Assembly: GCA_051294375.1 (NCBI GenBank)
Contig: CM119268.1
Location: 19,390,203 to 19,446,490 of the forward strand
Direction of reading: 5' to 3'
Source of the DNA: Paraspadella gotoi
Lineage: Eukaryota > Animalia > Chaetognatha
DNA length: 56,288 bases
Shown here: positions 9,391 to 47,139 of the stretch, piece after piece
Position numbering within the stretch: the first letter of the stretch is position 1
How the letters are laid out: each line of letters opens with the position of its first letter
The notes under the pieces: generated by a model
Database searches by the model: none
What the model saw: the letters and a program-made list of their open reading frames with translations, nothing else
What the model was told of the DNA's origin: nothing
Program-made: the position numbers and the translations under genes

Positions 9391-9465
9391 ACGGGTCCTG
9401 GCTTGGAACCAGCTTGGAGTTTTGCCACACCACAAGGCAGCTTACGGCCATCCTCACGCTTCCGC
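9391..9465 (-). ncRNA. Twister ribozyme (family A), noisy mirror copy of 21761-21839
   Basis: Reverse complement of the 21761 copy with small indels. It lies in the left arm of the large inverted duplication, so it may not be an independent locus. Confidence 0.5.
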
Positions 9466-20200: not shown

Positions 20201-20377
20201 ATTGGGTTGTTGCACTGAAGCTTTTAAATATTTATTAATATATAACAAATGACAAAAAAAGTTTAAGTTTTATTTTTTAAGAACATATTCCTATAGAGCT
20301 TGAAAAGTTAAATGAAAGTTAGTACTACAATTTTGTCAAAATTTGACAATAAATTGGTTAAAAATAGAAAAAATCCT

Positions 20378-21507: not shown

Positions 21508-21911
21508 CACTACGCCTTACTGGTGAGCCCATCATGTCGAGCGTATTCCAACCTTCTGATTCCAGGCCCATGGACATGCCGAAGATTGCTCCCCTCCCTC
21601 CACTGGACGCAGTATTTGGAGGGCTTGTAGTTAGGGATTGCGTAGGTTCACCCCGTCTATAAGCTTTACACTTTCAGTTGTGACCCGGTGGCTCATTGAG
21701 TAAAGCCATCAGCTTAAAACCACTAGGTACCGGGTTCAAGCCCAACCCGGTACCTGCCCTGCGGGAAGCGTGAGGATGGCCGTAAGCTGCCTTGGGGGTG
21801 TGGCAAACCCTCAAGCCTGGTTCCAAGCCCAGGACCCGTTCCATGGCTGCAAGAGTGGCTTATAGAAGTTATAGAAGTTACATCTTCAGCCCACTTAGGG
21901 CCTTATTCACA
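21508..21911 (+). mobile_element. Family A element, one monomer (mirror copy at ~9322-9725 on the minus strand)
   Basis: Colinear with the 406-bp unit. The tRNA-like head at ~21682-21753 (B box GGTTCAAGCCC) is followed by the twister. Confidence 0.8.
21761..21839 (+). ncRNA. Twister ribozyme, P5-type permutation (family A); predicted cleavage U21783|A21784
   Basis: GCGGG(P5) AA GCGU(P2') GA GGAU(T1') GGCC G UAA GCU(P2) GC(T2) CUUGGGGGU..ACCCUCAAG(P3) CCUGG UUCC AA GC CCAGG(P4/L4) A CCCGU(P5'). This matches the twister core UAA / GA / YYCC-AA-GC. Confidence 0.85.
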
Positions 21912-22252
21912 TATATGTCAATATCTTGTAAGAGTGATATCACTCCAGTAAAAAGGAGAGAATGAAGAAATGCGTTTAAGAATCGGGTTGACGAATGATG
22001 ATGATTATGATGATGAAGTTGAAGATGATCATGATGAGGATGATGATGATAATGATTATAATGATGAAGATGATGATTGTGATGATGATGATGATGAAGA
22101 AGTTGAAGATGATGATGATGTTAATGATGATGATAATGATGAAGATGATAATGATTAGGATGATGAAGAGGATGATGATGAAGTTGAAGATGATGATCAT
22201 GATGACGACGATGATGATGATGATGATTATGATGATGATGAATATGATGATT

Positions 22253-22287
<35 letters not shown>

Positions 22288-23620
22288 GATTATGATGTTA
22301 AAGATGATGATGATGATTATGATTTTGATGATGATGATGAATTAGAAGATGATCATGATGATCATGATGACGACGACGATGACGAGACGGCGTCTTCTTG
22401 GGGTGAAGGGTCCAACTCATGAGCCAAACGAGGCTGACGCCGACATTCCCCTCTTTATCTTTATATTCTATTTCTTCTTCTTCTTCTTCTTCTTCTTCTT
22501 CTTCTTCTTCTCTTCTTCTTCTTCTCTTCTTCTTCTTCTTCTTCTTCTTCTTCTTCTTCTTCTTCTTCGTTTTATCTTTTGGAGGCCGCGACCGAAACGA
22601 GAAAAGAGTGAAAGAGCGGAAAGGGGGATCTTGAGGGGGGGGGCTGAGATATGCCGTCGAAGGGGGCGGGGGATTGGAGGCAGAAAGACGATCGAGGAAA
22701 CGAAGGTTGATGATGGGAATGAAAAAGGTCTGATATGATTAGAGTGCAAGGTGTGATATGATTAGTGTGCAAGGTCTGATATGATTAGTTTGAATATTTT
22801 AACGTTAGCTATGGTTCGGGATCAAATCAATGCTTGAGTATTAAACCGCGGTTTTTCAAAAGGGTTTTTTTCGAGAGGCACGAAGTAAATGGGGGAACAA
22901 AATGTTCTCATCGATGTATACAAATACAATGACGATGAAAGTTAAATTGGTAAAGGTAAATCTGTCAAGATTAATATTATTATTATTTTTTTACTGGCTT
23001 AGAATTTTTGGTGAGTTTCATTAAAATGTATGTACTGGAACAACCTTGTAATGTTGGATTAAAAAAAAATGCTCATACGGATTCAATAACTGGATGTTAT
23101 TGATTTCGCCCTTTATAAATTAGAATCAAAACTTTGTCTGCTATAGTTAAGGGCGAGAATTCTAGATTTATAATTTTGGGAACCTAGTGAAATTTGAATA
23201 TTTTAATATTTCGGATTTTAAAAAAATTAAAAAGAAAAGCGTCGACATATCATGAAAAAAATATGATTTAGGGTAAAATTCAACTCTGAGCAAAAAAACT
23301 TAGGTTGTTTCTGGAGTATGTATAAATTCATTCGCTCTTTTTTTTTTCCTTTTTGTCTTAGTCAAGTTTTTTTTTCTTTCTTTAACCGCTAGGGTCGCAT
23401 CGTTTCTAGTCTCCTCCCCTCCAATGCCCCCCCCCACAAGAAAAAAAAGTCAGTAGCGCAAATTTGATGGATGGACGGACGAAGACGATGGAAGCAACAT
23501 CCATTTTTTCCACTTTTTTTCATTTTTTTCCTCTTCATGTGTTTTTCCTTTTCAGTTCTTTTTTTTTCTTTGCTTTTTTTTTCTCTCTCGTTTCCTTTAT
23601 TATTTCGTTCCATCTTTCAG

Positions 23621-23672
23621 CTTCGTTACTTTTCTTGTACAAGAAATTCTATGGGTCGTTTCACCGTGACAC
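23621..23672 (+). CDS. Candidate short exon, phase-compatible with a candidate terminal exon at ~24416-24530
   Basis: TTTCAG acceptor and GTGAGT donor. The joined frame reads SLLFLYKKFYGSFHRDT-IPTFTDSLTVFHFHWTRASHLHSIPKQMSSTYERLKS*. No homology was recognised. Confidence 0.3.
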
Positions 23673-25261
23673 GTGAGTGAGGATTGGACTTCGTGAGACG
23701 CGATTGCGATCCGTAGATTGGGATATCATCATGAAGCCAATTTCTAACTCTGATGGTTTCACGTTCACGTACATGTATATAGAAAAACAAACTAGCGAAA
23801 AAAAACAAACAAACAAACATTGAGCGTCCTCCTCAGCGTAGCTTCAGTCGCGGCGGCTGCCGCGGCTGTCGCGGCTGACTTACGAACTCGCGTCGTCGTT
23901 AACGAGTGATTAATGAAAAAAATCACGACCTCAATGTGGCCCTAATACGCCCCGAGTATGCGAGAACCCTTCCCTAAATGAAAACTCATAGTATGAATGT
24001 GACGATAAGGCAAAAGAGTGTGCGATAGTTCCTAGAATATGCAACAACACCACCTCAAATATGAAACAACCTCACCTCAAATGTGCACTTCTCGCATAAA
24101 AAAAATGTATATAACCGTCGCGAAATCTTGCGGCAAAAAAAATTGAATAAATAAATAAATAACGATGATGGGGAACAAATGGAGAGGGGAAAAGCAAGAG
24201 AGGGAATGAAGGGAAAAGAATAATAAGAAGGTTGAAGAAAATTAGGAATGGATTAAATGTGAGTTTTTAATAGATTGATATCGACAATTTCTCAAACACA
24301 AAATTAAAATTTAAAATCAATATTGTTGGATTAGAAAGAAAATAAAAGAATTAAAAATAAAAAAAATTTAAAAGGGTTTCTTCATCCTTGACATGATTCA
24401 CCCTTCGTCTCACAGAATCCCAACGTTCACTGATTCGTTGACCGTCTTTCACTTTCACTGGACGCGCGCCTCACATCTGCACTCGATTCCAAAGCAGATG
24501 TCATCGACGTACGAGAGGCTCAAGTCTTGAAGAAACAAGACTCTCTCTCTTTCTCTATTTCTTGTGATCCCCTCCAAATTGTTTCTCACATCTCACCCGC
24601 GAATTCAAGCGCGCTTTTCAGACGACTTATAATTTTAATTTTTGTTGATTTTAATTTTATTCCGTTTTTTGTTCGTTTAAAAATTTTTAGTCGGATCTGC
24701 TGATCAGCAGATTCCGAATCTGTAATCCACTTTGTCGGTCCGTCGGTCCCACCCCAAAAGTTAGTCGCTAAATAATTTTTATCATATCAGAACATCAAAT
24801 TATGATAAATTAAGCACAAAACACGATGACCGTCCGTCCATCTGTCTGTCTGTCCGACCGTCCAAAGTTACTCGTGATTTGATGGATGGATTGGAATGAA
24901 ATTTTGTGTGTGGGTAGGAAAGTGTGTGATTGAGGTGGATATCAAGTTTCGACGGAATCGTGCGAGTGGAAATGAGTTTAAATGGAAAAAACGAAAAAAT
25001 CTACTCCGTGTCCGTTCGCGAGTGACACCAAAAAAATCTTTACTATACGTTAAATATTTAATAAATATAATTCATAAGTATATCATTATTTGGAGAATTA
25101 CTGGACGTTTTTTACATATAAGTTTCATTTCGTGTTTAATTCATATTTATATTTTATTCACTATTATATATTTAAATTTTTTATCGAACATGTGGATAAG
25201 GCCCTAAGTGGGCAGAAGATGACTATCCATAACATCTATAACCCCCTCTAGCAGACATGGA

Positions 25262-25340
25262 ACGGGTCCTGGGCTTGGAACCAGGCTTGAGGGTTTGCCA
25301 TGTCCCCAAGGCGGCTTACGGCCGTCCTCACTCTTCCCAC
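25262..25340 (-). ncRNA. Twister ribozyme (family A, tandem copy 1); predicted cleavage 25318|25317
   Basis: The reverse complement reads GUGGGAAGAGU GA GGAC GGCC G UAA GCC GC CUUGGGG..CCCUCAAG CCUGG UUCC AA GC CCAGG A CCCGU. Confidence 0.85.
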
Positions 25341-25667
25341 AGGGTAGGTACCGGGTTGGGATTGAACCCGGTACCTAGTGGTCATGAGCTGATGGCTTTA
25401 CTTAATGAGCCACCGGGTCACAACTGAAAGAGTCATGCTTATAGGCGGGGGTGAACCTAGGCAATGCCCGACGACATGCCCCCAGATTGTAACCCACCCT
25501 GCACTGCTTCCAGTGGAGGGAGGGGAGCAATCTTCGTCACATCCATGGGCCTGGAATCAGAAGGTTGGAATACGTTCAACAGGATGGGCTCACCAGCGTG
25601 GATAAGGCGCTAAGTGGGCAGAAGATGACTATCTGTAACTTCTATAACCCCCTCTAGCTGACATGGA

Positions 25668-25746
25668 ACGGGTCCTGGGCTTGGAACCAGGCTTGAGGGT
25701 TTGCCATGACCCCCAGGCGGCCTACGGCCGTCCTCACACTTCCCGC
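25668..25746 (-). ncRNA. Twister ribozyme (family A, tandem copy 2; UAG instead of UAA at the cleavage loop)
   Basis: Same fold, 406 bp from copy 1. One core substitution may reduce activity. Confidence 0.75.
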
Positions 25747-28700
25747 AGGGGAGGTACCGGGTTGGGATTGAACCCGGTACCTAGTGGTCATGAGCTGATG
25801 GCTTTACTCAATGAGCCACCGGGTCACAACTGAAAGAGTCATGCTTATAAGCGGGGTGAACCTAGGCAATGCCCGACTACAAACACAATAAAATTGGCGA
25901 AAAAAGACCAAGTTTACATCACAAGATATCCCTATTAATGGCGTATCTGAATTATCGTAATGTTGAGTAATTTCTGAGTAATGATTTTTTATTTATTTTT
26001 TTAATTGTAAATGTTAAGTTTTCTTTATACAATTCGTTCAATTAGAAAAAAATGCTGTTCTGAACATGTTCCTGACTGTTTTAAATAATTATTTTATATC
26101 ATGAGTCCCAGATAATTTTTAATCTAATGGTGTCAATAAGTTTTAATAATTTTCTTTTTTTAAAAGATTGTTTTTTACTGAAGATGAATTTGGAGGACCA
26201 TTAAAGAAAGGTTTTTCATAAGTAAAAATCAAATTATTCTTATGAAATTTAAATATAATAAACGTCAAGTACCTTGCTACAGAATGAGGAAAGAAAATTT
26301 AAGAAATATTTATCCAATGAGAAATGGGACGCATTTTTTTGGTGTCACTCGCGAACGCCAAGTACTCATGAGTGGATGAGGCAATTGACTTGAAATTTTG
26401 TATGAGGGTAAGAAAGTGTGTGATTAAGCTGGAAATCAAGTTTCGATGGAATCGTTTGAGTGGAAATAAATTAAAATGGAAAAAAACATAAGTCACATTA
26501 ACTAAAATCTTTTTACTAATTTTAACCCATAATTACTCAAATTAATCATATGTTTTTGGATACATTGAGATGACATTTTGTGTGTGGGTCGAAAAGTGTG
26601 TGAAGAAGCTGGATATAAAGTTTTGAAGTTATTGGGCAAGTAGAAATGAGTTTAAATGGAAAAAAACATAAGTCACATTTATATAAATATTTTTACTAAT
26701 TATAACCAATAATTACCAAATTATTCATAATTGGATGGATAGATTGAGATAAAATTTTGTGTATGGGTAGGAAAGTGTGTGATAGAGCAGATGTAAAGTT
26801 CTGATGGAATCTAGGAGTGAAAATGAGTTTGCATGGAAAAAAAACAAAGTCAAGTTGACTTGAATTTTAATTATTTATGCTTACTCATGTTTTAAACAAT
26901 TAAATAATTAATTAAAGTAAAGAAATTATTAAATTTGAAAAATATATGTATGTTAAAAATGATTCAAATTAAAAAAATTATGCCAGTTGAAAAAAATTAT
27001 GCAAGTTAAATAATGATGTAAGATGAAAAAATTATTCAAGTTGAAAAAATGATCAATTGAAAAAAATTTGCGAGTTTAAAAAATGATGCCAGTTTAAAAA
27101 ATGCTGCAAAGTTTTTATATGTGTTTATGCCCGTATGTTCAAGTGGCTATATTATTCAAGTTGAATAAATGATGCCAGTTGAAAAAATTATACTCACTGA
27201 AAAAATGATTTAAGTTGAAAAAATGATGCAAGTGGAAAATGTGATGCAAGTTGAAAAAATAATAGCTAAAAAAATTATTTGTACTCTATTGGTAACTATT
27301 ATTAGCATAGTAACAGTTTAATTTAATCCATTGCAAGCGATTTACATATATTGGCGAAGCCATTGCACACTGCAGTGATTCAAATGGCCTCAATTTCCAG
27401 GAAAACCTCCTTTTTTTGGCAAAAACTAGTTTTTCTCGTATGCTGATTATCATAGATGACTTCTGAGGTTGTTTGAAACGTTTAAAATAATAAATAGTGA
27501 TTTGAAAAAATATGGAGAAAAAATTCATTTACCGACAAATTCGGTTTTTAAAGAAATCATATATGGTAGTTAAACGACTTGATTTATAATTTTGATATTA
27601 AATAGAAATTGACCCGACTTAATATTTTTTCTTTATTTATATTATATGTGGGAGAATGTATTAAAAAACATTGTTTGAGCACTTAGCTCTAACCTAATTT
27701 GTACCTTGTAGATTTCACTGGGCGAAGCCATTTCGCTCTCAAAAATAAGAATCAATCCAAATCACGAGATTTTAATAATAATAACTATAATCAGAGCAGA
27801 GCAACAAGAGTGAGCTACTGACAGAGAGAGCTATAGAGAGAGAGAGCTCAAACTCAAAGCTGTACAAAATAATAATTTCAATGATTAGAATTCATTTCAA
27901 AAAGTTACAAATATTTCATCATGTTACCTAATGTTTCCTTGGCAATCTCCTAAAAGTTTAAAGTTTACTTGCCATTTTATACTTCTTTAAAATTTAAATA
28001 GACCAATTAAAAACGACTTTCGACTTTTGAAAATACTACCAATAATTGGATCAGAAAAGTCACAGAATAGAGGACGAGTTTGAGAATTAAAGCTTGTAAC
28101 GTTATTGGTATTCTATATAAAACAGAATGTTAATTTCGAAAATTAATTAATTATTTATCAACTTTTAACATTATAAGTAAAAGGTGTATGTTTGCTAAAT
28201 ATAAAATCATTAATTTAATCTTTTTAAAAGCGCGCTAACAAATTAAGATCGGAAAATCGATCAAAGAAAAGAATCATACGTATGGTAATTTTTTAAGAAT
28301 ATCGAATCCTTTTTTATATTGTTTGTATGAAAAGCATGAAGAGCATATTTTTTTCTCTTCCACCCACGAGGGAGAAACAAACCTCTCAAAGACTCACCCG
28401 AAATAGAGATTTGCATATAAATTTAGAAAGAATATTTTTTTAAAACTGTTATCTTACATAAGACTTTGTACCATGACTATGGAAAGACCGAATATGTGTT
28501 TATGCCCGTATGTTCAAGTGGCTTAATCCGGATTACTGTGTATTGGTTATGATCAGTTAGGATCACAAATTGTTAAAAAAATATTATAATCTGATTAGCT
28601 GATTAACACTTAATTATCCGACATTGTTTGCTCAAACTTGTTTTTTCAATATTTAAATTTAAAAGACCTAGAAAATTCGGTTTTACGATTAACGTAATTC

Positions 28701-29675
28701 TAATCAATTAAAAGCTCTAACAGAGGCGTTTTTAGCACGAAAAATCGTGCGTCAATAAACTCAAATAGACCCGCCGAAATTAAGTTAAATATTTAGCTGT
28801 TAAAAAAATTAAAATAGGTTTCTGAACGAGCTGCGGAAAAAAAATGAAATTAAGTTGATTTTTTTTTTATCAACGCAATCGCTGAAATTAAATTCATCGT
28901 CGTCGTCGTCGTCTTAGTCGTCGTCATCGTCTTCGTCGTCGTCGTCACGCCCTTTAACCTTTCCCGCCAACGCGACATCGCGACGTCCACCTCATCAGCT
29001 CCATGACGACCAAATAAACAGCGTCGATGTTTTCTCCCCCTAGCGAACTTCGTTACGGATTTCAAAAGGTTTTAGTTTTCATCTTCCCAATTTTTTTTTA
29101 GTTTTCTCTCTTTTTTTTCTTTCGTCTTTCATTTTATTTAAAAAGTTTTTTTTTAAATTTCTATCTTCTGTTTGTTGTCCGTCCGCCGCTGGAGATTCGG
29201 ACCCGGAGTCGACGGGGTGAGGAAAGTGAGGTGAGTTTCTTTGAGACGAAGTGAATAGATTCGAGGTTGACGGAAAGTGAAACCAAGAAAATTAAGCGAT
29301 AAGAAATGAGGAAAAGAAAATGGGCCATATTTTCTAAAAGTGCACTTTTTTAGCGTAAATTCTGAATTAAATTAGGTTTTAGGTTTAAACTTTAGTTTTA
29401 AGGTTAAAGATTGGGATTAGGTTAGGGTAATGTTTGGGTTTACGGTTAAAAATTTAATTTAATATAAATTAAATATATTATGGTTAAACTTTAGATCAAA
29501 GATTAGGAACAGAAATGAGGCGATTTCGGAATATAGCGCCAGGAACTAGGAATTCCCCCATTTTACTTCTTTCAATATTTTTTCCGGTCACGATGTCTCC
29601 TATCTTCCAATTCATCCTTTCTTATTCTCTCTCCCTCGATATTACGTTTCATTTCTACCTTGTCCTTCTCTTCAT

Positions 29676-29985
29676 CCTTTCCTTAATCCCTTCCCCCCTT
29701 TCCTTAGTCCCTTCCTCCCTTTCCTTAATCCCTTCCCCCTTTCCTTAGCCCTTTCCCCCCTTTCCTTAATCCCTTACCTCTTCTCCTTAGACTCTTCCCC
29801 CATTTCTTTAATCCCTTCTACCTTTCCTTAATCCCTTCCCCTTTTCCTTAGCCCCTTCCCCCTTACCTTAATCCATTCCCACCTCTCCTTAGTCTCTTCC
29901 CCCTTTTCTTAATCCCTTCCCCCTTTCCTTAATCCCTTCCCCCTTTCCTTAGTCCTTCCCCCTTTTCCTTAATCCCTTTTCCCCT
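29676..29985. repeat. ~21-bp pyrimidine-rich minisatellite (TCCTTAATCCCTTCCCCCTTT)n
   Basis: Directly visible tandem array. Confidence 0.9.
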
Positions 29986-30185
29986 TTTTCTTCTTGTTTT
30001 TCCTGAGAGTTCTCGGAATTCCCTCAGGCTCGAAACCAAAATCGTCTTTTGTGTCTCGTTCAACGAAGGAAGAGAGAAAAAAAGGAGGGGGAAAAATAAG
30101 GGAAAAAAGGAAAAGAAAGGAAGAAGAGAGAGAATTCGGCCGTGAGACGAGGAAGAAAGTTTGACCCTCGGCTCGAAAGAAAGAC

Positions 30186-30244
<59 letters not shown>

Positions 30245-30504
30245 GGTGGAAGTAATCCATCTTTCCCCCCTCTCTCTCTCGTCTTCCCTTCTTCTCACTT
30301 CAAAACATAAACAAACTTCACCCGAGAAAACCGTTTTCACTAGCTCTCCATCGTTTTCACTCGCTCTCCATCGTCTTTTGGAGTGTAGAAAAGGAGAAAG
30401 AAAAAGAGGAGCAAAAAGAGGAAAACGATAGAGAGCGAGAAAGTCGGAAACACCCAGAGACGCCTTTCAAACTTTCCCCCTCGACCCAGCAACAAGAATC
30501 GGAA

Positions 30505-33500
30505 ATGCCTCGTTCGGCGTCGGTGGTTCGGATGTTGGCCTCTGCGCTGCAGGCGGCGCGGACTAACGCCGGCCGGACGACGCTGCCGATAGCGACAGTG
30601 ATTCCGGCGGCGGCGAAGACGGCGGCGTTGACGGGCGGATTGGGGTGGCTCGGTCTGCAGGTTCGGGAGGACTAGGGTGGGAATATGATAGGGGGAATTT
30701 GATGGGGGAAATTTGATGGAGGAATTTGATGGGCAATGGGATTATGACGGGGATTTCAAAAGGGGAAAGGGGATTTGACGCAAAAATTTAAGACTTTTGC
30801 AGGGGATTTTGACGCTGATAAATTGTTTTTCCTTGTTCCCCTTCCCAGGTTTACTCGAACTCCCCACGACGCTTTACGGTTTTGGCTCAATCGGAGTCAC
30901 CGAAGAAGAAGGATCCGAAGAAAGCAGATCCGCCAAACAGGTCAAAAGAAAAGCCAGGAATGAAGAAGGCCTCCAAGTTGGCGGCGGCGACGGCGACGGC
31001 GACGGCGACGGCGGGGGCAGGGGCGGCGACGGCGACGCCTTCGACTCCCGATGTGAAAATTGAGAAGGTTGAGACGAAAGATGCGTCGACGACGGCGTCG
31101 ACAGCAGTGTACACGACAGTGGAGGAATCATTCGGCTCACATCCTCCGACTGTCATGGAGCGGATGCTGTGCAATTGTGGTGAGGAAGCGAAGTTAAGGG
31201 TGGAAGCAGGAGGAAGTCGAGGTCGTTTTCTTCTTAATTAAGTCGTCGTTTTCGTCTCTCAGGATCAGAGGGTTTCCTTCAGTCTTTGATTTCATCGTTG
31301 TGATTTGTCGTTGCTTAGTTCGCTTCCGTTGTTTTTGGTCATTGTCGTCTGTCATTGTTGTCTGTCATCTGTTTATCTGTCTGTCGTCTGTCATTGTTTT
31401 CTGTCTGTTTGTCTGTCTATCTATCGTTTGTCATTGTCGTCAGTCATTGTCGGTAGTTGACAACTTGATTTCCTCTAGTAGGGACCAACTCCAGAGATAA
31501 TATAAAATTTCGACTATTAGCAAAATATTTTTAGTTGTCTTGACTAAATATTTAAGCAATCTTTTTCAAAAAAAATTTACATAATACGTCTTGATTAATA
31601 CATTAAATATTACTTGTCTCTTTTACATTATAAAGTTTTTTTAAATCTTACATTTTTTCGATGGATTCTGATAGAGCATAAAAAGTTAGACAAGAAATAT
31701 AATAACAGCTTTTAAAAATTCTTCTATGTGAAAATATAAAAAAAATTATAAAATCATCAAAAGATGATGATGATGATGATTTTTTACGGTTTTTCTTATT
31801 TTTGACTCACTTATCATGAAAATATTGAAAAAAGAATTATACTTTGTGTAGACAACTTTTTATGAGCTATCTGAATCTGGTCTTAAAATTTTAAAATTAT
31901 CCAAAAAAATGTTGGCCTTTCCTATTTATTAATTATTATTAAAAAATAATTATTTGGGTATAGAACCATATAAGAAAAGTTTTGTCCATTGAAACTATAC
32001 TTAAAATGTATAAATTTTCGTTTGAGCATGTAATCATTCTAAATTTTTGACTCACCCCGTTGAGTGAGGCTACCCCTACCTCTAGCTTTTTTTTGGGTCT
32101 TTTGACTGTCTTTTTTTTCCTTTGCCTCTGTCGTCAATGTCAATATTAACTGTCGTCAATATCAACTGTCGTCAATATCAAATGTCGTCAATATCAACTG
32201 TCGTCAATTTCAACGGTTGTCAATATTAACTGTCGTCAATATCAACTGTCATCAATATCAACTGTCGTCAATATCAACTGTCGTCAATATCAACTGTCGT
32301 CAATATCAACTGTCGTCAATATCAACTGTCGTCAATATTAACTGTCGTCAATATTAACTGCCGTCGACGTCAATATTAACTGCCGTTGACGTCAAAATTA
32401 ACTGTCGTCAATAATAACTGCTGTCAGTATCAACTTCATCCACAAACTTTACATCTCAATCCAGACAACCTATACATCCTCCTTCTCTAGGCATCCCCCT
32501 CTCGCCGCCGCCCGCCGACCGCTCGGGTCTCTATGGCGTCGAAGTCAACGGACTCGACGAGACGTTGGAGAGTCTCGTAATGGAGAACTGGAGCGCCAAC
32601 GCCGACCCGCAGAAGAAGGACGACAACAACGACGAGGAGGAAGAAGCGATGGACGAGGAGGAGGCGAAGAAGAGAGATCCAATGAGAAAACCGCTGACGG
32701 TGATCTTGGAGGATGCATTGAAGATGCATCACAGGTGAAGACTTGGAGATGAATCACGAGTGAGGAGATGCCTCTAAGATGAATGGCAATTGATGCCTTT
32801 GAGACGCATCGTTTTTTGTTACTCCATTTAAACATGGTCCCTTTCTCTTCCCGTGATGCCCTCTCTTTCCACTAAAGCATAGAAAAAAAAATAAAATCAA
32901 GGAGAATCAAATTTCAAAATTTAAATCATGAACCTGTGAACATTTTTAAATATTTTTTTTATTTGTCAATTTTCGCATAGTCTATATCTATACATAGAAC
33001 TCAACATAGAAAATGTCGAAAATTTAAATTTTTTTTTTTATTATTTTTGAAAGCAGATTCCTCAAGAACTATTAGAACTATTAGAAAATTATTTTATTAG
33101 ATGGGTCAAAATCCTGAAAAAACTATTATAATTGACCTATAATTAAATTTTAGTATGAAAATATTGGAATCTGTTTTTAAAACTAAGAAAAAACGTTTTT
33201 AAAATTTTGACATTTTCAATGGTGAGTATACTAATGCTAATGCGAAAATTGAGAATTTAAAAAACAATTGTTTTTATATATCAATTTTTTAGTACAAGAC
33301 TGAATTTTGATCGGCAACTTTAACTATGTAGAACAGAATTCTGATACTCGATCCCAAACATTTTTTCATAAGATTAATTTTTTTTTCCTAAAACGAACAA
33401 AAGGAATCCATAACTTTGAATTATTTTATAATTTCTTGGTAAAACAATATAATAAATTACATTAGCCAAAAATTTTTTTTGGATTATAGCAACGAATTTT

Positions 33501-33588
33501 ATTATTAAGCAGACATGTTTCCAACAGTAGTTCTGTTCTTCAGTGCATAAACATTTTTAAAATAATGAATTTGTTAGGTTCACAAATT

Positions 33589-33638
<50 letters not shown>

Positions 33639-36586
33639 AAAGCTTTCAACATAGATTTGAGGGAAATGTAAGTTAAATGGTTAGGACAGCTGAAGTTTGA
33701 CAGTTTGACAGTATGACCTAAGTGAAAGGAAATGAATGGTCAAATAGAGAAAATAACATATGCAGAGGTTATAAATTAAAAGTTTACGTTTCAACAATGA
33801 ATAACCAATTTAAATGAGAAATAAATGGCTAATGGGATAAACAAAAACAGAAACCTAACTTTATGCTATAATAAAAAAAAAGTTTTCTGCTAATTTAAAC
33901 CACCAAGGAAAAGAAAGGAATTCCAACAAATAAATTACATTAATATTGAGATATTATGAAAATATAACTATCTTGTGAAGCCTGTAAAAGTTAAATAAGT
34001 AAAAAATTCGCTTATTTTATTATTGAAAAATAACATCAAGTGAAGAAGTTGAACGTCTTCCGACTCCTTTCAGTAAATATCCCTGTTCTCTATAATGTTT
34101 ACTTTTTGCTGATGGAAAAGAAAGATAAATAATTAGACTGTGATAGGGTGAATAATATTTTGTTGAATTTTTTAATCATGCTTGTAAAATCAGACAAACA
34201 AATATTTAAGTGACAAAAAATTTACATTTTCTTTATCCAAAAAACTTTAAAGTTTTACTAGAGTACAATTTAGCCTTTTTTTCAGAATCGTTAAATAAAA
34301 TTTAATTTTTATTTATTCTTTTGGGTTTTAAAATTTTTTAAATTTTAGTTTTAAAATTCATTATAATTTTGACCTAGTTTGACACTCACCCTGTAAAGAT
34401 GTTTCAGCAAAAATAATTATAAAGTTGTATCTGATTATGGCTTCATTTTGGTACTATTACCATCCCTTTATCTTTGTTCCTTCAAAAGATATTAATAAAA
34501 ATCAGTTTTTACTTTTCTTTTAATTGGTTTAATATAAAAAAATTCTCAATAATAAAAAGAAAAATAAAACGAGCTCCATGGACACAAGGCTTTCAGAATC
34601 TCATAATTTGAAGTATCATTTATAATGCTAACATACCGTAATCCCATTTATAATTTTAAAAAAGTAAAATTTCCTTTTCATTTCTATAGTAAAAATGAGG
34701 TTTGAAAATCCTCCGGAGACGAGTAGTTCAGTTCCCCTGGCTTGTTTCAGAGTAAAATCTTTATCAAATGCCACATGAAAACATTAACGAGCTCTTGAGA
34801 TGCAAAGCTATCGGAATCGTGTGTTATTACAACTGTTTTCTACCGGAATTTCTTGCAGGCTCGTTTGTAAAGTTGGGAAGTCAGATTCGAACGGAAATCT
34901 CTATTAGAAAAATGTTTAATTTTTTTTAAGCAAGATTTTCGCCTAAACTATGCCTTACTATCCACTAGACCAGCCTCTAAAATCATAAACCAATAAGAAC
35001 GCTTCCCCTTTTCTCTCTTTAGAATGATGGTGGAGCAAGTCCCAGGAAAGTGCGAACCTTCGGATCAACTGGCCGAGCCTGATTTCCGCGGCTGGGTCGA
35101 CGAGGCTGACCGACTGTTTCGCGAGCGCCGCTACGAAGTGTTGAAGGAAAAACTGGATGCCGAATACGCAAGTGGGCGCTGGAGGAATAAATGGAGAGAT
35201 TGTGCTTGGAAAGAAATATTGTTCTAGGAGTGTCGAAGATGAAAAAAATTTTGTGAATTTTTTTTTGGTATCCTTCCGTTTTACACATCTTAACTTACCT
35301 TTCTTTTTTCCTCCCCCCCCAACAAAAAAAGAGACGAAAGGCAAGTACCCTAAGCGAGACCCACAACTTCTCTGGCGGATGGCGAGACTCTACTTTCTTC
35401 TCGGCAACGAAGTCGAGGTCAACACACTCAAGTCTTGGAAGGCGGCGCTTGTGTGAGTATTGGCTGAGTGGGAGGTGTAGAGGAAGGAAGGATGCGGTGT
35501 CATGTTGAGTAGCTCCTTCATGACGTCGAATGAAAATTCACGGAGAATATTTGAAAAGTTTATTACTTTTTACGGTACATGAAAATCCTGATAAACTAAT
35601 CGGGACTAGGAATGAATCAGTTTCAAAAACAGAAGCTGAAAATTGATCTTAACTTGCTCGATTAGAAATAAAGAACAATAACTTTACTTTATAAAGAGGG
35701 CAGAAATTAATTTTTAACCTTATGTTGTTTAGCTGCTCCGACAACACAAGCATCCTTCTCCCGATTACGTTATAAAAATATGTAATTGAATATAAATATC
35801 GAATACAAGAAATAATATAAAGGAAATAATAATTAAATCTAATACATAGTGATATATATGTAGTCGGGCATGGCAAAACTTTTACATTTTTTTAAAAATT
35901 TAATTTAATTTAGTCTAATATAGTAAAATAAATAATTGAACAGACAGTGATAATTGTTATGTGTTAGTGACAGAACCGTTCATGTAAGCAGTCCATGAGC
36001 TTCGGATCAGGCTGTAATACCGTGTTACAGGGGGTTAAGCGCTCCGTCCCTTTAACTCTTAACTCTTGACCACCCGGGCTATAACGCCGGGCTATAACGC
36101 CGGGCTATAACGCCGGGCTATAACGCCGGGCTATAACGCCGGGCTATAACGCCGGGCTATAACGCGGCTATATATAACGCCGGGCTATAAACGCCGGGCT
36201 ATAACGCGGGCTATAACGGCCGGGCTATAACGCCGGCTATAACCCGGCTATAGCGGGCTATAACGCCGGGCTATAAACGCAAGCCGGCTATAACGCCGGG
36301 CTATAACGCCGGGCTATAACAACGCCGGACGCTTGGGTTGGGAGGCGAATGACTTGCCTCCGGCACCAATGGCCGCTGATGAACGGTTGGTGGATTTTAG
36401 TCCACCATATAATCTTTCCAAAAAAGAATATTAAGTGTTGCGTGAAAAATGTCAAAAACTGCGATGGTAAAGCAGCAACAATGGATGTGGGTAGCATTGG
36501 TGTTATTACGTCAATGGCGACGGAAAAGAAAAACGGGAAAAGTTTTGTCTCGTAGTTTTTTCGACCTTTCGCCCCATTTTTTTCCC

Positions 36587-36658
<72 letters not shown>

Positions 36659-38692
36659 TCTCTCTCTCTCTCTCTTCGTCCGCTTCAAAGAAGACACGCA
36701 TTTTACCCTCGCAGGCCGTAAACAATGGTTGCCAGCCCGCGCGAAAAGTGGAAGACTTTATTTTATTTTTATTTTATTCTCTTTTTAGCTAGATATAATT
36801 TTGATATTTAATGTTTATTTATTATTAAAATTTCATATCATTATATAATTTTCTCTTTTCACTATAGAATTTCTACATTATTGATACCAAAATAATAACG
36901 TCATAAATTTATACTTTATACTCATGAATTTGATTTATACTTTTTATCCATCTTTCGATTTTTCCATATTTTATTATTTATTTTTTCCATATTCTCCCTC
37001 ATAATTTCCACATCTTTTCCACATCTTTTCCACATCTTCCTTCATCCCTTTCCGACCTTCCAGCTACGCGATGGATTCCTTGAAACAATTCGACGACAAA
37101 AGTCGCATCGACCGCAATAGAGACGTCTTCTACATCAACCACGCCTGCTGCTGGAAGTGCCATCTCTGGTTCGGAATCGTCTTGGCCAAGCTCGGTGGCA
37201 TGCAGGTATTTTCTTGCTATCTGTGTTTCAGGGTTTTTTTGTGCAAATAATCCGCTTGAAGATTGGAAAGAACGTTATGCATCTACCGCATCGTGTATGT
37301 TACTGAACGAGCTGACGGTATTTGCATACAGTAGATTAATGAACAATGAGCATGACAAATTCCTTCATTTTCAGGAAGACCAGGTAAAACGGATCAAAAT
37401 CGGCATCATGGCGAGACAACACATGGAACGAGCGGCGCAAATCAATCCGCTAGATCCGATTCCCAACTTTGCGTTGGCCAAGTGGCATTACGAATTCTGC
37501 AAGCTCACCGCGGGTCAGTTGCGACTCGAAAATGAGTAAGTTATACGAGGAGTGAAAAAGTAGTGAGCGCCATCTTAAATTTCTCAGGTCAAGGAAAAAT
37601 CGTGAGGGAATTGGGATATCAATATCCAATCACGAACATCGAAACTGCAATGAGATATTCGGAGGTGATTCAAACCGATTTCTTCAATCAATCAATCAAT
37701 CAATTAATCAATCAATCAATCATTTGAAACATAATCTATGGATGAACCGTTTCTTTTCACAGAAAGCCAATACCCTTTCGCCAAAACTCCTCGGTTCCTT
37801 GACGGGCAAATTTCCTCGCAATGTTTATTTGATGTGCGAGATATTTTACATCTTGGGCTACAAGGAAAAGGCCAAGTATCACCTCGAGAGCGTGAGTCGA
37901 GTATTTTATATTACAATCGTAGCTATCGTCGTCATCGTCGTCGTCGTCATCGTCATTATATTCCCAACGTTTAGAAAAGAAAACAACTTTGAGCAAACAA
38001 TGTCGGATCTGCCTACGATAATTAAGTGGTAATCAGCTAATCTTATGATAAAGCACGTCAATTCTTTCTGACTTTCAATTTTTGACAAACAAATAATAAC
38101 ATAACAAATCATGACATACTTTTTTATAAATTTAAGAAAAAATCTATAAATAATTGATCTATCAATGAACCAGTAGCTGCGCCTATAATAACTTGCATAA
38201 TTTGGTCAACTTGCATATTTTGGTTAACTTGCTTAATTTGGTCGACTGACATAATTTGGTCACCTTTCATAAATTGATCAACTGGCCTGATTTGGTCAAC
38301 TGACATAATTTAGTCACCTGGCATAATTTGGTCAACTAGCATAATTTGGTCAACTGGCATAATTTAATCAACTGGCATAATTTTTTCAACAGGCATAATT
38401 TTGTCAACTGGCATAATTTTGTCAACTGGCGTAATTTGGTCAACTGGCATAATTTAGTCAATTGGTATAGTTTAGTCAATTGGCACAATTTGGTCGACTG
38501 GCATAATTTTGTCAACTGGAAAAATTTGGACAACTGACTTAATTTTATCAACGGGCATTATTTTGTCAACTGGCATAATATAGTCAATTGACATAGTATG
38601 GTCAACTGGCATAATTTGGTCAATTGGCAAAATTTGTTCAACTGACATAATTTGGTCAACTGGAATAATTCTCTCATTCATACATTTTATCT

Positions 38693-38737
<45 letters not shown>

Positions 38738-41145
38738 TTAAAAAACAATTTCCAATGAATGTGATTTTTGTTTTTCCCTTGCCGCTCGCTTGATTCCACC
38801 AGAACTTTATGTCAAGCCCACACTTTCCAACCAACACACAATATTTCATCTCAATTAATCCATTTAATTGTGAATAATTTGAATAATTGTGAGTAAATAT
38901 AATTCGATAAATTCAAAAAATGTCACTTTTGTTTTTTCCATTTAAACTCAATTCCACTCGCATGATTCCTTCAAAACTTTATATCCAGCTCAATTACACA
39001 GTTTCTTAACCAGACACTAAATTTCAGCTATATCCATCCCTCCAATTATGATTAATTAGAGTTAATGTAGGTTAAAAGATTCAATTAAATGTAACTAATG
39101 TTTTTTCATTTAAACTCATTTCCACTCACATGATTCCATTGAAACTTTATATCCTGCTTAGTCACACAATTTTCCAACCTCACAAAATTTCATTCCAATC
39201 CATTCTTCTAATCACGAGTAATTGGAGTTTTTTGGAAAGGCGGGACGGACAGACAGACGGACGGACATCATTTTTTTTCATAATTTATCATAATTAGATG
39301 TTCTGACATGATTTGAGTGAGTGCCCGACAAGATTTAAGGGGGGGGACCGACGGACCGACAAAGTGGATTATAGAGTCGGGATCTACCTGTAAGCAGATC
39401 CGACTAAAAACCCCACGACGAAGATCCTCTAATCAGCGGCGTCGTTAGCGATTCGTCTTAAAGTTATTAAAGTTGTCTCTTTCTTCTTTTTTCTCCATCA
39501 ACTGAGAACATTCTTCTTCTCCTGCTTCTTCTTCTTCTTCTTCTTCTTCTTCTTCTTCTTCTTCTTCTTCTTCTTCTTCTTCTTCTTCTTCTACAGAGTT
39601 CGGACTTGAATCTTACCCCCTTAATTGATCCTTAATTAATTTTGTTTTACAAAATTGTTTTATTTTTTATATCAGAAGAATCGATAAGGATTTTTCTATC
39701 TTTTGGATTGTAATTAGTTTTGCTATATCGAAAAACATTAGTATGGGAAGCAACTGAAAACCATGAGTCATGTTTTCTCCGCACCCAAAAGCCAAATAGT
39801 TAAAAATCAACTACATATAAATATTTGCACTCCTGCAAAATTGGGTGGGTTTCCAAAACTTAGTGGGTTTCTTTATAGTGATATTGAGAAAGTATTGTTT
39901 ATGGATTTCTCAAAAAAAAGTATAATATCTAGCATAAGCCAAAATTGTATAACAAGTAATATCAATCAATTCGTACTTTAAAATTTTATATCTTAAAAAA
40001 ATTGAAGCTGCAGTATGCTGCAGTAACTTGAAATACCGTACAATTATCGGGATTAGGTCCCTGACATATAAACCATCGATCTATGTTATTTCTACGGCAT
40101 AATATACTATGTTACTAGTATAGAGTAAGATTGCCTTTAATATAATTTCTACGAATTTTGGCCTCAGGACATTATGCCCCATCTAATACAGTATCATCTA
40201 AATTCATTTGCATATTGCAGTATGGGGCGAATTAAATGTAACACTCAACAGTTGACCTTGCAAAAACAAGTTTGAGCAAACAATGTCGGATCTGCCTACA
40301 ATAATTAATTAATTAATTAATTAATTAATTAATTAATTAATTAATTAATTAATCGATAAATTAATTAATTAACTAATTTTAATATGTAATAGTTAATTTT
40401 AAATTTATATTTATGTTTACATTTTATCAAAACAAACAAATATCCTCTTGTAGTGGTAGTATTTCATACCCCACTACTCGTCCGGAGAATCAGCAGCCTA
40501 TGGCGCCGGAGGTAGCACGAGCTCCTCCCAACCCAAAGGACTCGGGTTCGCGCCCTGCTGATTCACACAAGTAAAAGCGGGACGGGGCGTCTAACCCACC
40601 TGTAGTGTCGGACTACAGCCCGATCCGAAGTTCGGACCTTGTGTGCAACGGACGGTAAACTGCTCGCGGCATCGTCTTCCACATTGGTGAGCCCACACGA
40701 ACACGCTGGCACGTTAATACACCTCTGCCCGCCATGTTAACACACCTCTGCCCTCGACCATCGTGTGTGAAGACGGGAGCAGGAATAGGCAGCCCCTCCT
40801 AAGAGTGCTCGGGCACAACGCGTGCATCATAGCCATCCACACTTGCGCGGTGTGTGATGCCTCGGGGGGGATGTGTAGTGGTAGTATTTCATACCCCACT
40901 ACTCGTCCAAGAATCAGCAGCACCTATGGCGCCGGAGGTAGCACGAGCTCCTCCCAACCCAAAAGGCTCGGTTCGCGCCCTGCTTATTCACCAAGTAAAA
41001 GCGGGATGGGGCGTCTAACCCACCTGTAATGTCGGACTACAGCTCGATCCAAAGTTCGGGACCTTGTGTGCAACGGACGGTAAACTGCTCGCGGGGCATC
41101 GTCTTCCACACTCTATTTTATTTTATGTCTCCTTCTCTTCTCTCA

Positions 41146-41183
<38 letters not shown>

Positions 41184-42715
41184 TTATGCAATTGCGACGA
41201 TCTTTATGCTTTTAAGATTTTTTTAACTTGCATCATTTTTTCACATTAATTAATTAATTAATTAATTAAAACATTTATTAGTAATCATTAATATTAAAGA
41301 TTCAATTAAATGTGACTTATTGTTTTTTCCATCTAAACTCATTTCCACTGGCACAATTCCGTCAAAACTTTATATAATTATTATATAATATAAATATTTT
41401 AAAAGCTTCAGTGCAATAACCCAATGAACTAATTCAAAAAGTTACATTGAAAATCGATTTAGTAAGTAGAAGGAAAAAAGAAATTTTTTGAGAGAACTAG
41501 AAGTTATAAAAAGTGTTCAATTTTGGCCCGCCTTACTAGATATATTGCAATGAAAATTGGTACAACCAATATAAAAATTATCCATTCATTTAATAAATAA
41601 GCTATCTTGCCCCTGACTTTGGACAGGCTTGGTGGTTTAAAGGCCTTCATCACTCTTACAAGATAATAATATAGCAGGTCCCTGCAAGCTTTTAAATCAA
41701 GACTCTCTCACAGTCTCGTTTATTCAATCCCAGAGTACCGTGGCTTCCCTATCAATGAAGTGGAAAATATTTCAAAGAATGTTTCAATTGTATTAAAAGA
41801 CCACTCCCTTAAGTATTAGATCGGGGAATACTTATTGTACTCCGCACTAGCATCAAAATACAAGGAGCTGAATTTTATGAAATTGGTACAACCAATATAT
41901 AAAAATTATCCATGTCATTTAATAAATAAGCTATCTTGCCCCTGACTTTTGGACAGGCCTTTGGTGGTTTTAAGGCCTCCATCACCTTACAAGATAATGA
42001 CATAGCAGGTCCTGCAAGCTTTCAATCAAGACTCTCTCACAGTCTCGTTTATTCAATCCCAGAGTACCTGGCTTCCCTATCAATGAAGTGGAAAATATTA
42101 CAAAGAATGTTTCAATTGTATGAAAAAACCACTCCCTTAAGTATTAGATCGGGGAATAATTATTGTACTCCGCACTAGCATCAAAATACAAGGAGCTGAA
42201 TTTTATGAAATTGGTACAAACCAATATAAAAATTATCCATTCATTTAATAAATAAGCTATCTTGCCCCTGACTTTGGACAGGCTTTGGTGGTTTAAGGCC
42301 TCCATCACTCTTACAAGATAATGACATAGCAGGTCCTGCAAGCTTTCCAATCAAGACTCTCTCACAGTCTCGTTTATTCAATCCCAGAGTACCTGGCTTC
42401 CCTATCAATGAAGTGGAAAAATATATCAAAAATGTTTCAATTGTAATGAAAAGACCACTCCCTTAAGTATTAGATGGGGAATACTTATTGTACTCCGCAC
42501 TAGCATCAAAATACAAGGAGATGAATTTTAATGAAATTGGTACAACCAATTATAAAATTATCCATTCATTTAATAAATAAGCTATCTGCATGTGATTAAA
42601 CAATGTTATCGGAATAATAATTTTATCAATTTTATGTATTTTGTAAGTATTTTAAGTATTTTTATTCAGAGTGAGTAAAATAACAACTTTTTTATTCGCT
42701 AATTTTTATCTCGGA

Positions 42716-42751
<36 letters not shown>

Positions 42752-42755
42752 TCTC

Positions 42756-42821
<66 letters not shown>

Positions 42822-44185
42822 CTCTCTCTCTCTTTGCAATTGCAACGATCCTTATGCTCATTTTTTTGCTAAAATAAGTAAGTAAAATAAGTAAAATAAG
42901 TAAAAAGATTCAAGTTAATGTAACTCATATTTTTTTCATTTAAACTCATTTCCACTCGTACGTTTCCACCGAAACTTTATATCAAGCATCGTTACACATT
43001 TTTCTACCCACACAAAAAAATTTGAACTCAATCTATCCATCCAATTATGATTAATTAGAGTACTTATTGGTTAAAATAAAGTAAAAATATTTTAGTAAAT
43101 GCGACTTATGTTTTTTTTCATTTCCACTCACACGATTCCGTCGAAACTTTATATCCAGCTTTATCACACACTTTCCTACCCACACACAAAATTTCATTCC
43201 AATCCAACCAGCCAATCACGAGTTATTGGAGCTTTTGTGCTAAGGTGGGACGGATGGACAGATTGATTGACTGATTAATTAATTATTGATTAATTAATTG
43301 ACTAATTGATTAATTAACTGATTAATTATTTGATTTATTAATACATCCTGTATATACATTTAATATAAAAGGAAAAATAATCATAATCAATTAGTGAAAC
43401 AGGTTTTTAGTTTTTTTCTATTTAAACTCATTTCCACTCAAAAGATTCCATCGATACTTGGTTTCCTGTTCAATCACACACTTTTCTACTCACATACAAA
43501 ATTCACAGGTCAATCGATAATTAAGTGGTAATAAGCTAACTTGGTCAACTTGCATAATTTTAATCAACTTGCATAATTTGGTCAACTGACATAATTTGGT
43601 CTACTGACATAATTTGGTCAACTGACATAATTTGGTCAACTGACATAATTTGGTCAACTTGAAGAGGCTGGTTTTACAGGGCGCCACACCCAGCGATGTC
43701 ACCTCGTGGCGAAAGCGAGACAGCATGTTCATGTAGTCCAGAGCTTTGAATCTTGCAGTAGGCCCATGCCTACAGGCGGGTTACCCGGTCCATCCCACTT
43801 TCTACTTGACAACCTCATGGCTCGAACCAGGGACGCACATTGGGATGGTGCATTAGTCCACTGAGCCACTGAGGCGCTGCGAAAGAAACAGCTTTAATCC
43901 ATCTGTGGTGATAGGACCACCAGACACTGACATAATTTGGTCAACTGACATAATTTGATCAATTAAGATAATTTGGTCAACCGGCATAATTTGGTCAACT
44001 GGCATAATTTTATCAACTGCCTAATTTGGACAACTGGCATAATTTGGTCAACAGGCATAATTTGATCAACTTGCAGAACTTGATCAACTTGCAGAATTTG
44101 GTCAACTGGCATAATTTGCTCAACTTTAAGAATTTGGTCAACTGGAATATTTTTGTCAATTGGCATAATTTGGTCAATCAATCAG

Positions 44186-44234
<49 letters not shown>

Positions 44235-45675: not shown

Positions 45676-45751
<76 letters not shown>

Positions 45752-46783: not shown

Positions 46784-46837
<54 letters not shown>

Positions 46838-47050: not shown

Positions 47051-47139
<89 letters not shown>

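Follow-up and report, generated by a model that had tools for sequence, protein, structure and literature searches.

Miniature LTR elements in the window

The window, i.e. the whole stretch of 56,288 nucleotides that was analysed, contains two complete elements with TG...CA ends, each consisting of two LTRs around an internal part. The complete element of family A, A2 (25191..25881, minus strand, 691 bp), is composed of a 5' LTR (25881-25597), a predicted PBS (25595-25585), a PPT (25483-25477), and a 3' LTR (25476-25191), all on the minus strand, and TGTT is present on both sides. The family B element (40449..41110, plus strand, 662 bp) has its 5' LTR at 40449-40683, a predicted PBS at 40685-40695, a PPT at 40864-40871, and its 3' LTR at 40874-41110, all on the plus strand, with a CTCT target duplication. 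Identity between the two LTRs amounts to 270 of 284 ungapped columns in A2 and 223 of 231 in B. Both complete elements have exact 4-bp duplications of the target site (TSDs), the chance of a 4-mer match being 0.0065 for each. In a further copy of family A, A1 (21508..21911, plus strand), the leftover end of a 5' LTR is followed by a predicted PBS (21521-21531), the internal part, and the 3' LTR (21626-21911), all on the plus strand.

The 11-nt PBS, which starts with TGG, is identical in families A and B. It occurs exactly four times in the whole window, in A1, its mirror image, A2, and B, and every occurrence is located 1-2 nt past an LTR end. G-rich tracts, the PPTs, are found 0-2 nt upstream of the 3' LTR in A2 and B. 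The termini TGTAGT...TCCACA are also common to both families, but a blastn match between A and B was not obtained. The GC content of families A to D is 54-57%, and TTTT is absent from the sense strand (P about 0.08). Public contigs with mixed flanks terminate where the LTRs do, 31 of them before 25191 (X1) and 30 behind 40683 at the family B LTR (X4), and solo LTRs are numerous among public contigs. Several long public contigs match 40449-40683 alone and represent solo LTRs of family B. In a biofilm run (X10), 12 contigs of A-like sequence were present, which were not taken to indicate a habitat.

Of about 100 candidate reading frames, 76 were compared with Pfam, and neither reverse transcriptase nor integrase was detected in these. 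The original prediction was supported with respect to non-autonomous elements and to a retrozyme-like logic. The one B-internal reading frame that was scanned gave no Pfam match, and no helper element was found within the window.

A2 and B had originally been described as head-to-tail repeats, with metazoan non-LTR retrozymes and SM-alpha as models. In a tandem reading they would comprise 1.7 and 1.55 units, Penelope-like insertions are known to make partial tandems (PMC8557442), and family E, described below, is a true tandem. It is nevertheless very improbable that families A to D are non-LTR tandem retrozymes of the SINE or SM-alpha kind, or pseudo-LTR partial tandems of the Penelope type. 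The TG...CA ends, the 4-bp TSDs, the PBS shared by A and B, the PPT, and the fixed ends in public contigs all argue against it, and metazoan non-LTR retrozymes have no LTR, PBS, or PPT and a GC content below 50%. For A and B the tandem reading is largely refuted: A2 and B are LTR-internal-LTR elements and not SINE-like tandems.

Solo LTRs, mirror copy, and promoter boxes

Family C (43660..43926, minus strand, TG...CA ends) is, by its organization, a solo LTR sitting in an 18-bp minisatellite. A 4-bp AGTT duplication at its ends is imperfect and fits only if one T is dropped. Family D (35955..36409, minus strand) is probably a decayed solo LTR. Its ends are uncertain (TA...CA with a weak ATTA duplication), and a 13-bp minisatellite (36074-36320) replaces the B box. 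C and D are single copies, and D is without an intact T2 pseudoknot and B box. Families B, C, and D are mutually related (blastn E values from 5e-6 to 3e-3; forced global alignments between families were not taken as evidence of kinship). Therefore, A to D do not constitute four independent families, as had been assumed.

A copy of A1 in mirror orientation, previously noticed at 9322, is present at 9304..9744 (minus strand). It is part of a larger, indel-rich fold-back around N gaps, in which about 9.2-15.7 kb mirrors 15.9-22 kb. Relative to A1, the copy has 6 mismatches and 28 gap columns, and its flanks are mirrored as well. From this arrangement, it is probably an assembly fold-back rather than an independent insertion.

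In all six copies of families A to C, B-box motifs are located 45-50 nt upstream of the predicted cleavage site (B boxes at 21733 in A1, 40545 and 40970 in B, and 43828 in C), and A-box-like motifs lie another 40-52 nt upstream of the B box (near 43868 in C). The tRNA-like boxes of the original prediction are thus found at a fixed place, but they do not form a head, being located roughly in the middle of the LTR. The B box is lost in D and absent in E. ARAGORN predicted no tRNA genes at default settings, and Rfam did not call any tRNA; relaxing the ARAGORN threshold gave 3, 23, and 134 calls, which were mostly noise. In a loose scan for A plus B boxes, 15 matches were obtained in the whole window compared to 7-15 in four shuffles, which is not above chance. 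Pol III transcription of families A to D appears likely.

Twister cores in the LTRs

Twister-type cores in P5 order were confirmed at seven loci in families A to D. In family A, they are located in A1 (21768-21833, plus strand, predicted cut 21783|21784), in the 3' LTR of A2 (25268-25333, minus strand, predicted cut 25318|25317, palindrome CGGCCG), and in the 5' LTR of A2 (25674-25739, minus strand, predicted cut 25724|25723). The latter may be impaired, because L1 contains UAG in place of UAA. Family B harbors the cores B1 (40577-40636, predicted cut 40592|40593, palindrome GGCGUC) and B2 (41001-41060, predicted cut 41016|41017), both on the plus strand. The cores of C (43798-43738, predicted cut 43783|43782) and D (36052-35994) are on the minus strand; in D, one T2 base is missing and T2 is broken. 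The predicted cut-to-cut monomers measure 406 nt in A and 424 nt in B, the sizes proposed originally.

The cores show the features of a P5-order twister, i.e. stems P2 and P4, pseudoknots T1 and T2, and the conserved bases of L1 and L4. When the seven P5-permuted cores were aligned, 95.7% of the cells were paired and 11 of 20 pairs showed compensatory changes. All three T1 pairs are formed in all seven rows, two of them with compensatory changes, and T2 is GC:GC or AC:GU; the T1 and T2 exchanges listed in the original prediction were found. B1 and B2 differ in T1 by a compensatory pair. The covariation score, derived from seven rows of four related families (family E left out) with a structure drawn from the same rows, was 0.66 compared to 0.26 in shuffles, and none of 500 shuffles scored as high. 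With slid partners, 0.17 at most was reached. Two further measures of covariation were less extreme, being matched in 25 and 64 of 500 shuffles. A strict descriptor, written after the elements were known, detected six loci, compared to 0.07 on average when 30 block shuffles were scanned. Among the rows listed, the best-supported family A variants affect the P2 bulge, P3, and P5, with pairing kept or improved. Unconstrained folding of the cores mostly did not yield the twister fold.

The Rfam twister models, to which the original prediction had looked for confirmation, called no core of A to D even at E<=10. At the gathering score, no Rfam match at all was obtained in the window; hammerhead matches were also lacking. 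The type-P5 model RF02684 gave 25.8 and 23.4 bits in family E only, the gathering score being 37.6. Pattern scans for relatives were without success: all 24 candidates (0 and 20 in viral sequences, four in metagenomes) failed the P4 test and are chance matches, and no matches were found in prokaryote genomes.

With RF02684, the cores have in common the permutation, the GA and UAA of L1, the two pseudoknots, and the stems P2 and P4. They differ in that P1 is reduced to a single pair with a palindromic tetraloop, P2 consists of three pairs with a one-base bulge, and P3 is present in A to D. The shortened and bulged P2, the nearly missing P1, the sub-threshold Rfam scores, and several damaged copies could mean that the twister was captured by an otherwise ordinary Helenus TRIM and is carried along in an inactive state. 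This is very unlikely, since pseudoknots and catalytic positions are kept via compensatory changes across otherwise dissimilar LTRs, and natural twisters tolerate bulges. On the basis of the alignment, the folds in A to D are considered real, and cleavage at U|A is predicted with considerable confidence.

Family E and the palindromic P1

A model built from the seven cores of A to D detected an additional family, E (E=9e-6). It is an AT-rich (GC 0.35), 325-bp head-to-tail repeat with 3.2 copies (41554..42587, minus strand). Twisters without P3 are located at 42310-42267, 41987-41941 (indel-damaged), and 41655-41612, all on the minus strand, with the palindrome AGGCCU. Family E alone is a true head-to-tail repeat, with one twister per unit and without a tRNA head. 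An LTR reading was rejected, because A/B boxes, PBS, or TSD were not found. Its layout matches that of non-LTR retrozymes, which are low-GC tandems of 150-450 bp with one ribozyme per unit and no PBS, but the ribozyme of metazoan non-LTR retrozymes is a type I hammerhead. A tandem non-LTR retrozyme-like model for family E is plausible.

Throughout the five families, P1 consists of a single base pair, by which a tetraloop of palindromic sequence (GGCC, GCGU, CCGG, or GCGC) is closed. Neither this palindrome nor family E was part of the original prediction. Self-complementarity extends to the inner 4-mer in five of five families (background 0.12), and in four of these it comprises the full 6-mer (background 0.047); family C is without the outer palindrome pair. 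A P1 stem of at least two pairs was not found in cis, where one pair at most is possible, and 4-6 pairs are formed only in trans. Double-sided changes are present at all three P1 pairs, including the innermost one (CG:4, GC:3), which is impossible within a hairpin. In a nested-helix model ignoring pseudoknots, a swapped dimer was favoured by 10-16 kcal/mol; in unconstrained folding, the P1 swap was clear only for D and E.

A similar arrangement is known from dimer-acting hammerheads of amphibian retrozymes, which also have one pair and a palindromic tetraloop beside the cut; the axolotl hammerhead is cleaved far better as a dimer (PMC7229834). This parallel, together with the palindromic P1, suggests that two LTR twisters cut as a pair, which is considered slightly favoured. 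In twisters, P1 is dispensable, and P1 imperfections barely mattered in a large type-P1 screen (PMC5408937, PMC11662667). Monomers may therefore cut alone. A palindrome-joined dimeric twister was not found in the literature searched, and the palindromic P1 closed by one pair in five families is a new feature.

Relation to known elements

Since families A to D carry LTR hallmarks, Helenus TRIMs and plant LTR retrozymes are the proper comparisons. Helenus TRIMs (TRIMp3; Kojima 2024, PMC10886601) are likewise non-coding, smaller than 1 kb, and have two LTRs with tRNA-like A/B boxes, PBS, PPT, and solo LTRs. Several families occur per genome, and those of animals produce 4-bp TSDs. Judged by these traits, A to D fit non-coding miniature LTR retrotransposons, namely Helenus-type TRIMs plus a ribozyme. 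A ribozyme is not mentioned in the main text of PMC10886601, and neither a twister core, by motif look-up, nor the 11-nt PBS of A and B was found in the Helenus consensus file. On visual inspection of this file, a candidate unannotated hammerhead was noticed at the equivalent place in two Helenus LTRs from wasps. Half of the combination presumed to be novel is thus already in print, but an LTR element with a twister in place of the hammerhead was not found in print.

Plant LTR retrozymes (Cervera et al. 2016, PMC4918200) share a ribozyme in each LTR, PBS, PPT, 4-bp TSDs, solo LTRs, a GC content above 50%, and a cut-to-cut monomer without an R repeat. They differ in the ribozyme, a type III hammerhead, in the PBS, and in the monomer of about 700 nt instead of 406 or 424 nt; tRNA-type promoter boxes are a feature of A to C. 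With a twister, A to D are outside the published definition of LTR retrozymes, which requires a type III hammerhead, though they are predicted to be retrozyme-like in action.

Other systems are more distant. SM-alpha of Schistosoma (reviewed in PMC6765202) also combines a Pol III promoter with a ribozyme. SM-alpha and amphibian non-LTR retrozymes have the tandem layout in common with family E, but belong to another ribozyme class and have no LTR, PBS, or PPT. The T-variant twisters of Perere-3 (PMC8501958) are likewise tied to a retroelement and have a weak or variable P1. Yet they are of type P1, occupy the 5' terminus of a non-LTR element that is autonomous, and have P1 completed by the target site; LTR, promoter boxes, and palindrome are lacking, and PMC8501958 mentions neither a palindrome nor a dimer.

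Proposed life cycle and significance

As A to D fit Helenus TRIMs with an added ribozyme, they would act like plant LTR retrozymes. It appears reasonably probable that they move as twister-based LTR retrozymes by way of a paired cut, a circle, and a Gypsy-type helper. A Pol III transcript would extend from the 5' LTR through the 3' LTR, and the two LTR copies would swap halves through the palindromic P1 to form a dimeric twister, by which both LTRs are cut as a pair. The freed 406- or 424-nt RNA would be ligated into a circle, then reverse-transcribed and integrated by the helper. If both LTRs are cut at the same position, no terminal repeat would be left for strand transfer; the circle would supply the whole LTR. 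The circle would have only one twister, and since the P1 of this twister is weak, it would resist renewed cutting. Folding of the circular monomers is only mildly stable (z -2.3 and -1.8). Taken separately, a circular RNA intermediate is fairly probable, and a Gypsy-type helper is quite likely.

A Helenus-type TRIM with an active twister could also follow a linear cycle, in which the ribozyme takes over from a Pol III terminator and no circle is required. Often only the 3' LTR would be cut, and the RNA would retain about 100 nt of R repeat, from start site to cut, so that strand transfer could proceed in the ordinary way. In the part of the Helenus supplement that was covered, the B box is directly followed by a T run in most LTRs; at this place, the LTRs of A to D have the twister and no TTTT. 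Furthermore, P1-less twister cleavage is possible, and the cycle would be that of common LTR elements without any additional step. Against it, the same ribozyme is present in both LTRs, the palindrome predicts symmetric cutting by which R would be removed, and hammerhead elements of equal layout form circles (PMC4918200). The linear cycle is therefore regarded as unlikely.

In the literature consulted, LTR retrozymes are assigned to plants and non-LTR retrozymes to animals, and both kinds are based on hammerheads. Families A to D, residing in an animal host, would break both parts of this division. If the circular twister-based cycle is true, the twister would have a role within an LTR element of eukaryotes, and Helenus TRIMs would be connected with circular RNA generated by ribozymes. 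A palindrome-joined dimeric twister, if true, would be useful for RNA circles that do not re-cleave. Since Rfam misses the cores of A to D, similar cores may be common in invertebrate repeats. Only tentatively, a wider picture may be drawn: a non-plant genome would harbor several high-copy, Pol III-driven LTR retrozyme families with a dimeric twister and a circle that is not cut again, the same module would be used in family E, and, considering the wasp Helenus hammerheads, ribozyme-armed TRIMs would be recurrent outside plants.

Structure and setting of the elements

In the original prediction, families A and B were described as head-to-tail repeats. Instead, both show an LTR-internal-LTR arrangement with TG...CA ends, duplications of TGTT and CTCT, respectively, and the 11-mer TGGTGAGCCCA after the 5' LTR. 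The complete A element (A2, 25191-25881, minus strand) reads TGTT, 5' LTR (length 285, starting with TG), 1 nt, TGGTGAGCCCA, internal region, GGGGGCA, 3' LTR (TG...CA), TGTT, and the complete B element (40449-41110, plus strand) CTCT, 5' LTR (length 235, TG...CA), 1 nt, TGGTGAGCCCA, internal region, GGGGGGGA, 2 nt, TG...CA, CTCT. In the test for target-site duplications (TSD), a random 4-mer match has a probability of 0.0065. The LTRs are 95% (A2) and 97% (B) identical over ungapped columns. Terminal hexamers are common to A and B, yet blastn gives no match between them. Within the window, exact occurrences of TGGTGAGCCCA are restricted to A2, B, copy A1 (21508-21911, plus strand), from which most of the 5' LTR is lost, and the mirror of A1. 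The primer-binding sites (PBS) at 21521-21531, 25585-25595, and 40685-40695 start with TGG, and their last 8 nt (TGAGCCCA) are shared with the common PBS of fungal Helenus elements.

The window is eukaryotic DNA with a GC content of 37%, rich in microsatellites, and contains 1,213 N across four gaps. Its assembly is indel-rich with fold-backs, about 9.2-15.7 kb mirroring 15.9-22 kb. Large mirrors of this kind, centred on assembly gaps, were located at 46627-47253 and at 9245-21988 (N gaps at positions 15851 and 16210); they are probably long-read or scaffolding artefacts. The sequence at 9322, previously taken as a further A copy, lies inside a mirror and was not counted, because its flank is mirrored as well and its alignment to A1 shows 6 mismatches and 28 gap columns. 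The introns of a plus-strand gene at 32490-45975 (approximate ends; at least eight exon matches) house D, B, E, and C. By a weak Pfam match (RMD1-3, E 0.006) this could be a divergent RMD1-3 (RMDN-like) gene; the only relatives found in a protein search were four unnamed proteins. The gene family, along with the 4-bp TSDs, suggests an animal host.

Solo LTRs

Among 2,679,714 records of public DNA contigs from the same organism (run X1), 5,809 matched the A unit and 915 the B unit. Such contigs diverge from the reference where an LTR ends and continue into mixed flanks, the B LTR is all that some of the long ones match, and summed contig depth, which is not copy number, is about tenfold higher over the LTR than over the internal part. 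These three observations point to many solo LTRs in the genome. By its sequence, C (43660-43926, minus strand) is classified as a solo LTR, and D (35955-36409, minus strand) is probably a decayed one. At 35859-35871 (plus strand), about 90 nt past the end of D, 13 nt match the 5'-terminal sequence of the A LTR.

tRNA-like boxes

The predicted tRNA-like heads were retained in part. B-box motifs are found 45-50 nt before the cut in all six copies of A-C, but no tRNA was called in the window by ARAGORN or Rfam, and a loose box scan of the entire window gave a count not above chance. The case for promoter boxes in A-C is a positional one. On the sense strand, TTTT is absent from 1,298 nt (2.6 expected, P 0.08). 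At the expected B-box place of D, a 13-bp minisatellite of about 19 copies is expanded (36074-36320), the unit of which resembles T-arm/B-box sequence. Another tandem repeat, with about ten copies of 70 bp, is present at 7896-8598; its unit includes a stretch which we take to resemble a tRNA A-box region. In run X9, which may be RNA, depth over the tRNA-like part of B (40497-40568) was about tenfold that over the twister. One or two contigs carrying a G>T change account for most of the excess, which may represent a real tRNA or another family with the same head.

Twister cores

Rfam searches of the window at the database's own thresholds yielded no match. At E<=10, Twister-P5 matched only at 42267-42309 (25.8 bits) and 41612-41654 (23.4 bits), below the gathering score of 37.6 bits. 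Both sites fall in a family missing from the original prediction, E (41554-42587, minus strand), and none in A-D. A P5-order descriptor, tailored to the elements themselves, found six loci (A1, the two cores each of A2 and B, and a single E core), compared with 0.07 on average across 30 shuffles; C and D were detected only with relaxed P4 or T2 rules. When the same pattern was applied to public collections, 0 of 20 viral and 0 of 4 metagenome matches passed P4.

Twister-type cores in A-D, as originally proposed, were upheld by covariation and by a held-out model. Seven A-D cores could be aligned from sequence alone. Of the 139 cells that result when a structure of 20 pairs is laid over this alignment, 95.7% are paired, and 11 pairs show changes on both sides. 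The covariation score was 0.66 versus 0.26 in shuffles (0/500 as high) and at most 0.17 with slid partners, and two further measures were less extreme (25/500 and 64/500 shuffles), all from seven rows which are kin to one another and from which the structure was drawn. Recovery of E is the fairer test of the fold: a model built without E detected two E cores (E 8.8e-6 and 2.7e-4) and a damaged third (0.11), with 11 matches in all and none outside the elements.

Family E is a true tandem of a 325-bp unit (GC 0.35) with a P3-less palindromic twister. It contains T runs and no tRNA head, and searches for A/B boxes, PBS, and TSD in E found none. Within the window, E appears to come closest to a non-LTR retrozyme built on a twister. 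At 21914-21938, only 2 nt past the point where A1 ends on its 3' side, lies a 25-nt stretch from the 5' side of the E ribozyme (blastn E 3e-5).

Do the two cores cut as a pair?

The cores share a P2 of three pairs in which a single base bulges from the 3' strand; this base is C, A, or U in the window and, in family A, is among the positions that vary strongly between public contigs. The distance between the L1 GA and the cut-site U is exactly 9 nt in all eight cores parsed, comprising 3 nt of T1' and a P1 hexamer (CGGCCG or UGGCCG in A, GGCGUC in B, ACCGGG in C, AGCGCU in D, AGGCCU in E). In energy models, the hexamer forms at most one pair plus a tetraloop inside a single molecule (+4 to +6 kcal/mol), versus a helix of 4-6 bp between two copies (-6 to -11 kcal/mol). 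Self-complementarity extends over the inner 4-mer in five of five families and over the full hexamer in four, against backgrounds in these repeats of 0.12 and 0.047, respectively. The innermost P1 pair switches between GC and CG among cores, though no hairpin could form it. Within a transcript holding two LTRs, a half-swapped dimer is entirely nested and, counting P1 and P2 alone, 10-16 kcal/mol better than two monomers; in free folding the P1 swap is clear for D and E only.

An equal stem of one pair plus palindromic tetraloop occurs in the axolotl hammerhead, of which the dimer cleaves much better (PMC7229834, available part). Against paired cutting, a P1-less twister cuts almost normally (PMC5408937), and P1 defects had little effect in a screen of type-P1 twisters (PMC11662667), as far as the accessible parts of these papers go. 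On balance, we lean slightly towards the two LTR twisters cutting as a pair.

Relation to known systems and proposed cycle

A-D agree with Helenus on every feature tested against the available part of its description (PMC10886601). The main text of that paper does not mention twister, and "ribozyme" appears solely in a reference title. Twelve motif look-ups in the available consensus file gave two matches, both in internal regions and by eye lacking twister context; line breaks in the file could mask matches. In the same supplement, Helenus-2_SyJa-LTR and Helenus-2_SyUm-LTR from wasps contain, judged by eye, an apparently complete, unannotated type-III-like hammerhead directly after the B box. 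LTR retrozymes are still described as mainly plant and hammerhead-based in the accessible part of a 2026 preprint (10.64898/2026.07.22.740005); further literature, available in part, served for comparison (PMC7761336, PMC6765202, PMC8501958, PMC10085705, PMC8557442). Among the matches listed in open full-text literature, judged mostly by title or abstract, none describes a twister-bearing TRIM or LTR, or a natural dimeric twister. The novelty suggested for a twister in a Pol III-type element may stand to this extent, but the element itself corresponds to the known Helenus-type TRIM.

In the proposed cycle, Pol III would start in the 5' LTR and read through, and the twisters of both LTRs would cut, probably together, releasing an RNA that includes the PBS, the polypurine tract, and a single permuted LTR and lacks a terminal repeat (406 nt in A, 424 nt in B). 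Circularization of this RNA would fall to a host ligase, a step modelled on RtcB, which ligates hammerhead retrozyme RNA in vitro. The main rival is a linear RNA, the ribozyme acting in place of a terminator. The circular RNA would be primed at the PBS by a Gypsy-type helper and integrated with a 4-bp duplication. Animal Helenus elements and plant retrozymes are both linked to Gypsy through PBS and TSD in the available parts of their descriptions (PMC10886601, PMC4918200); no helper was found in the window by Pfam on 76 of about 100 candidate reading frames. The feature is real: a Helenus-type TRIM which probably works in the manner of an LTR retrozyme, with an unusual twister as its ribozyme.
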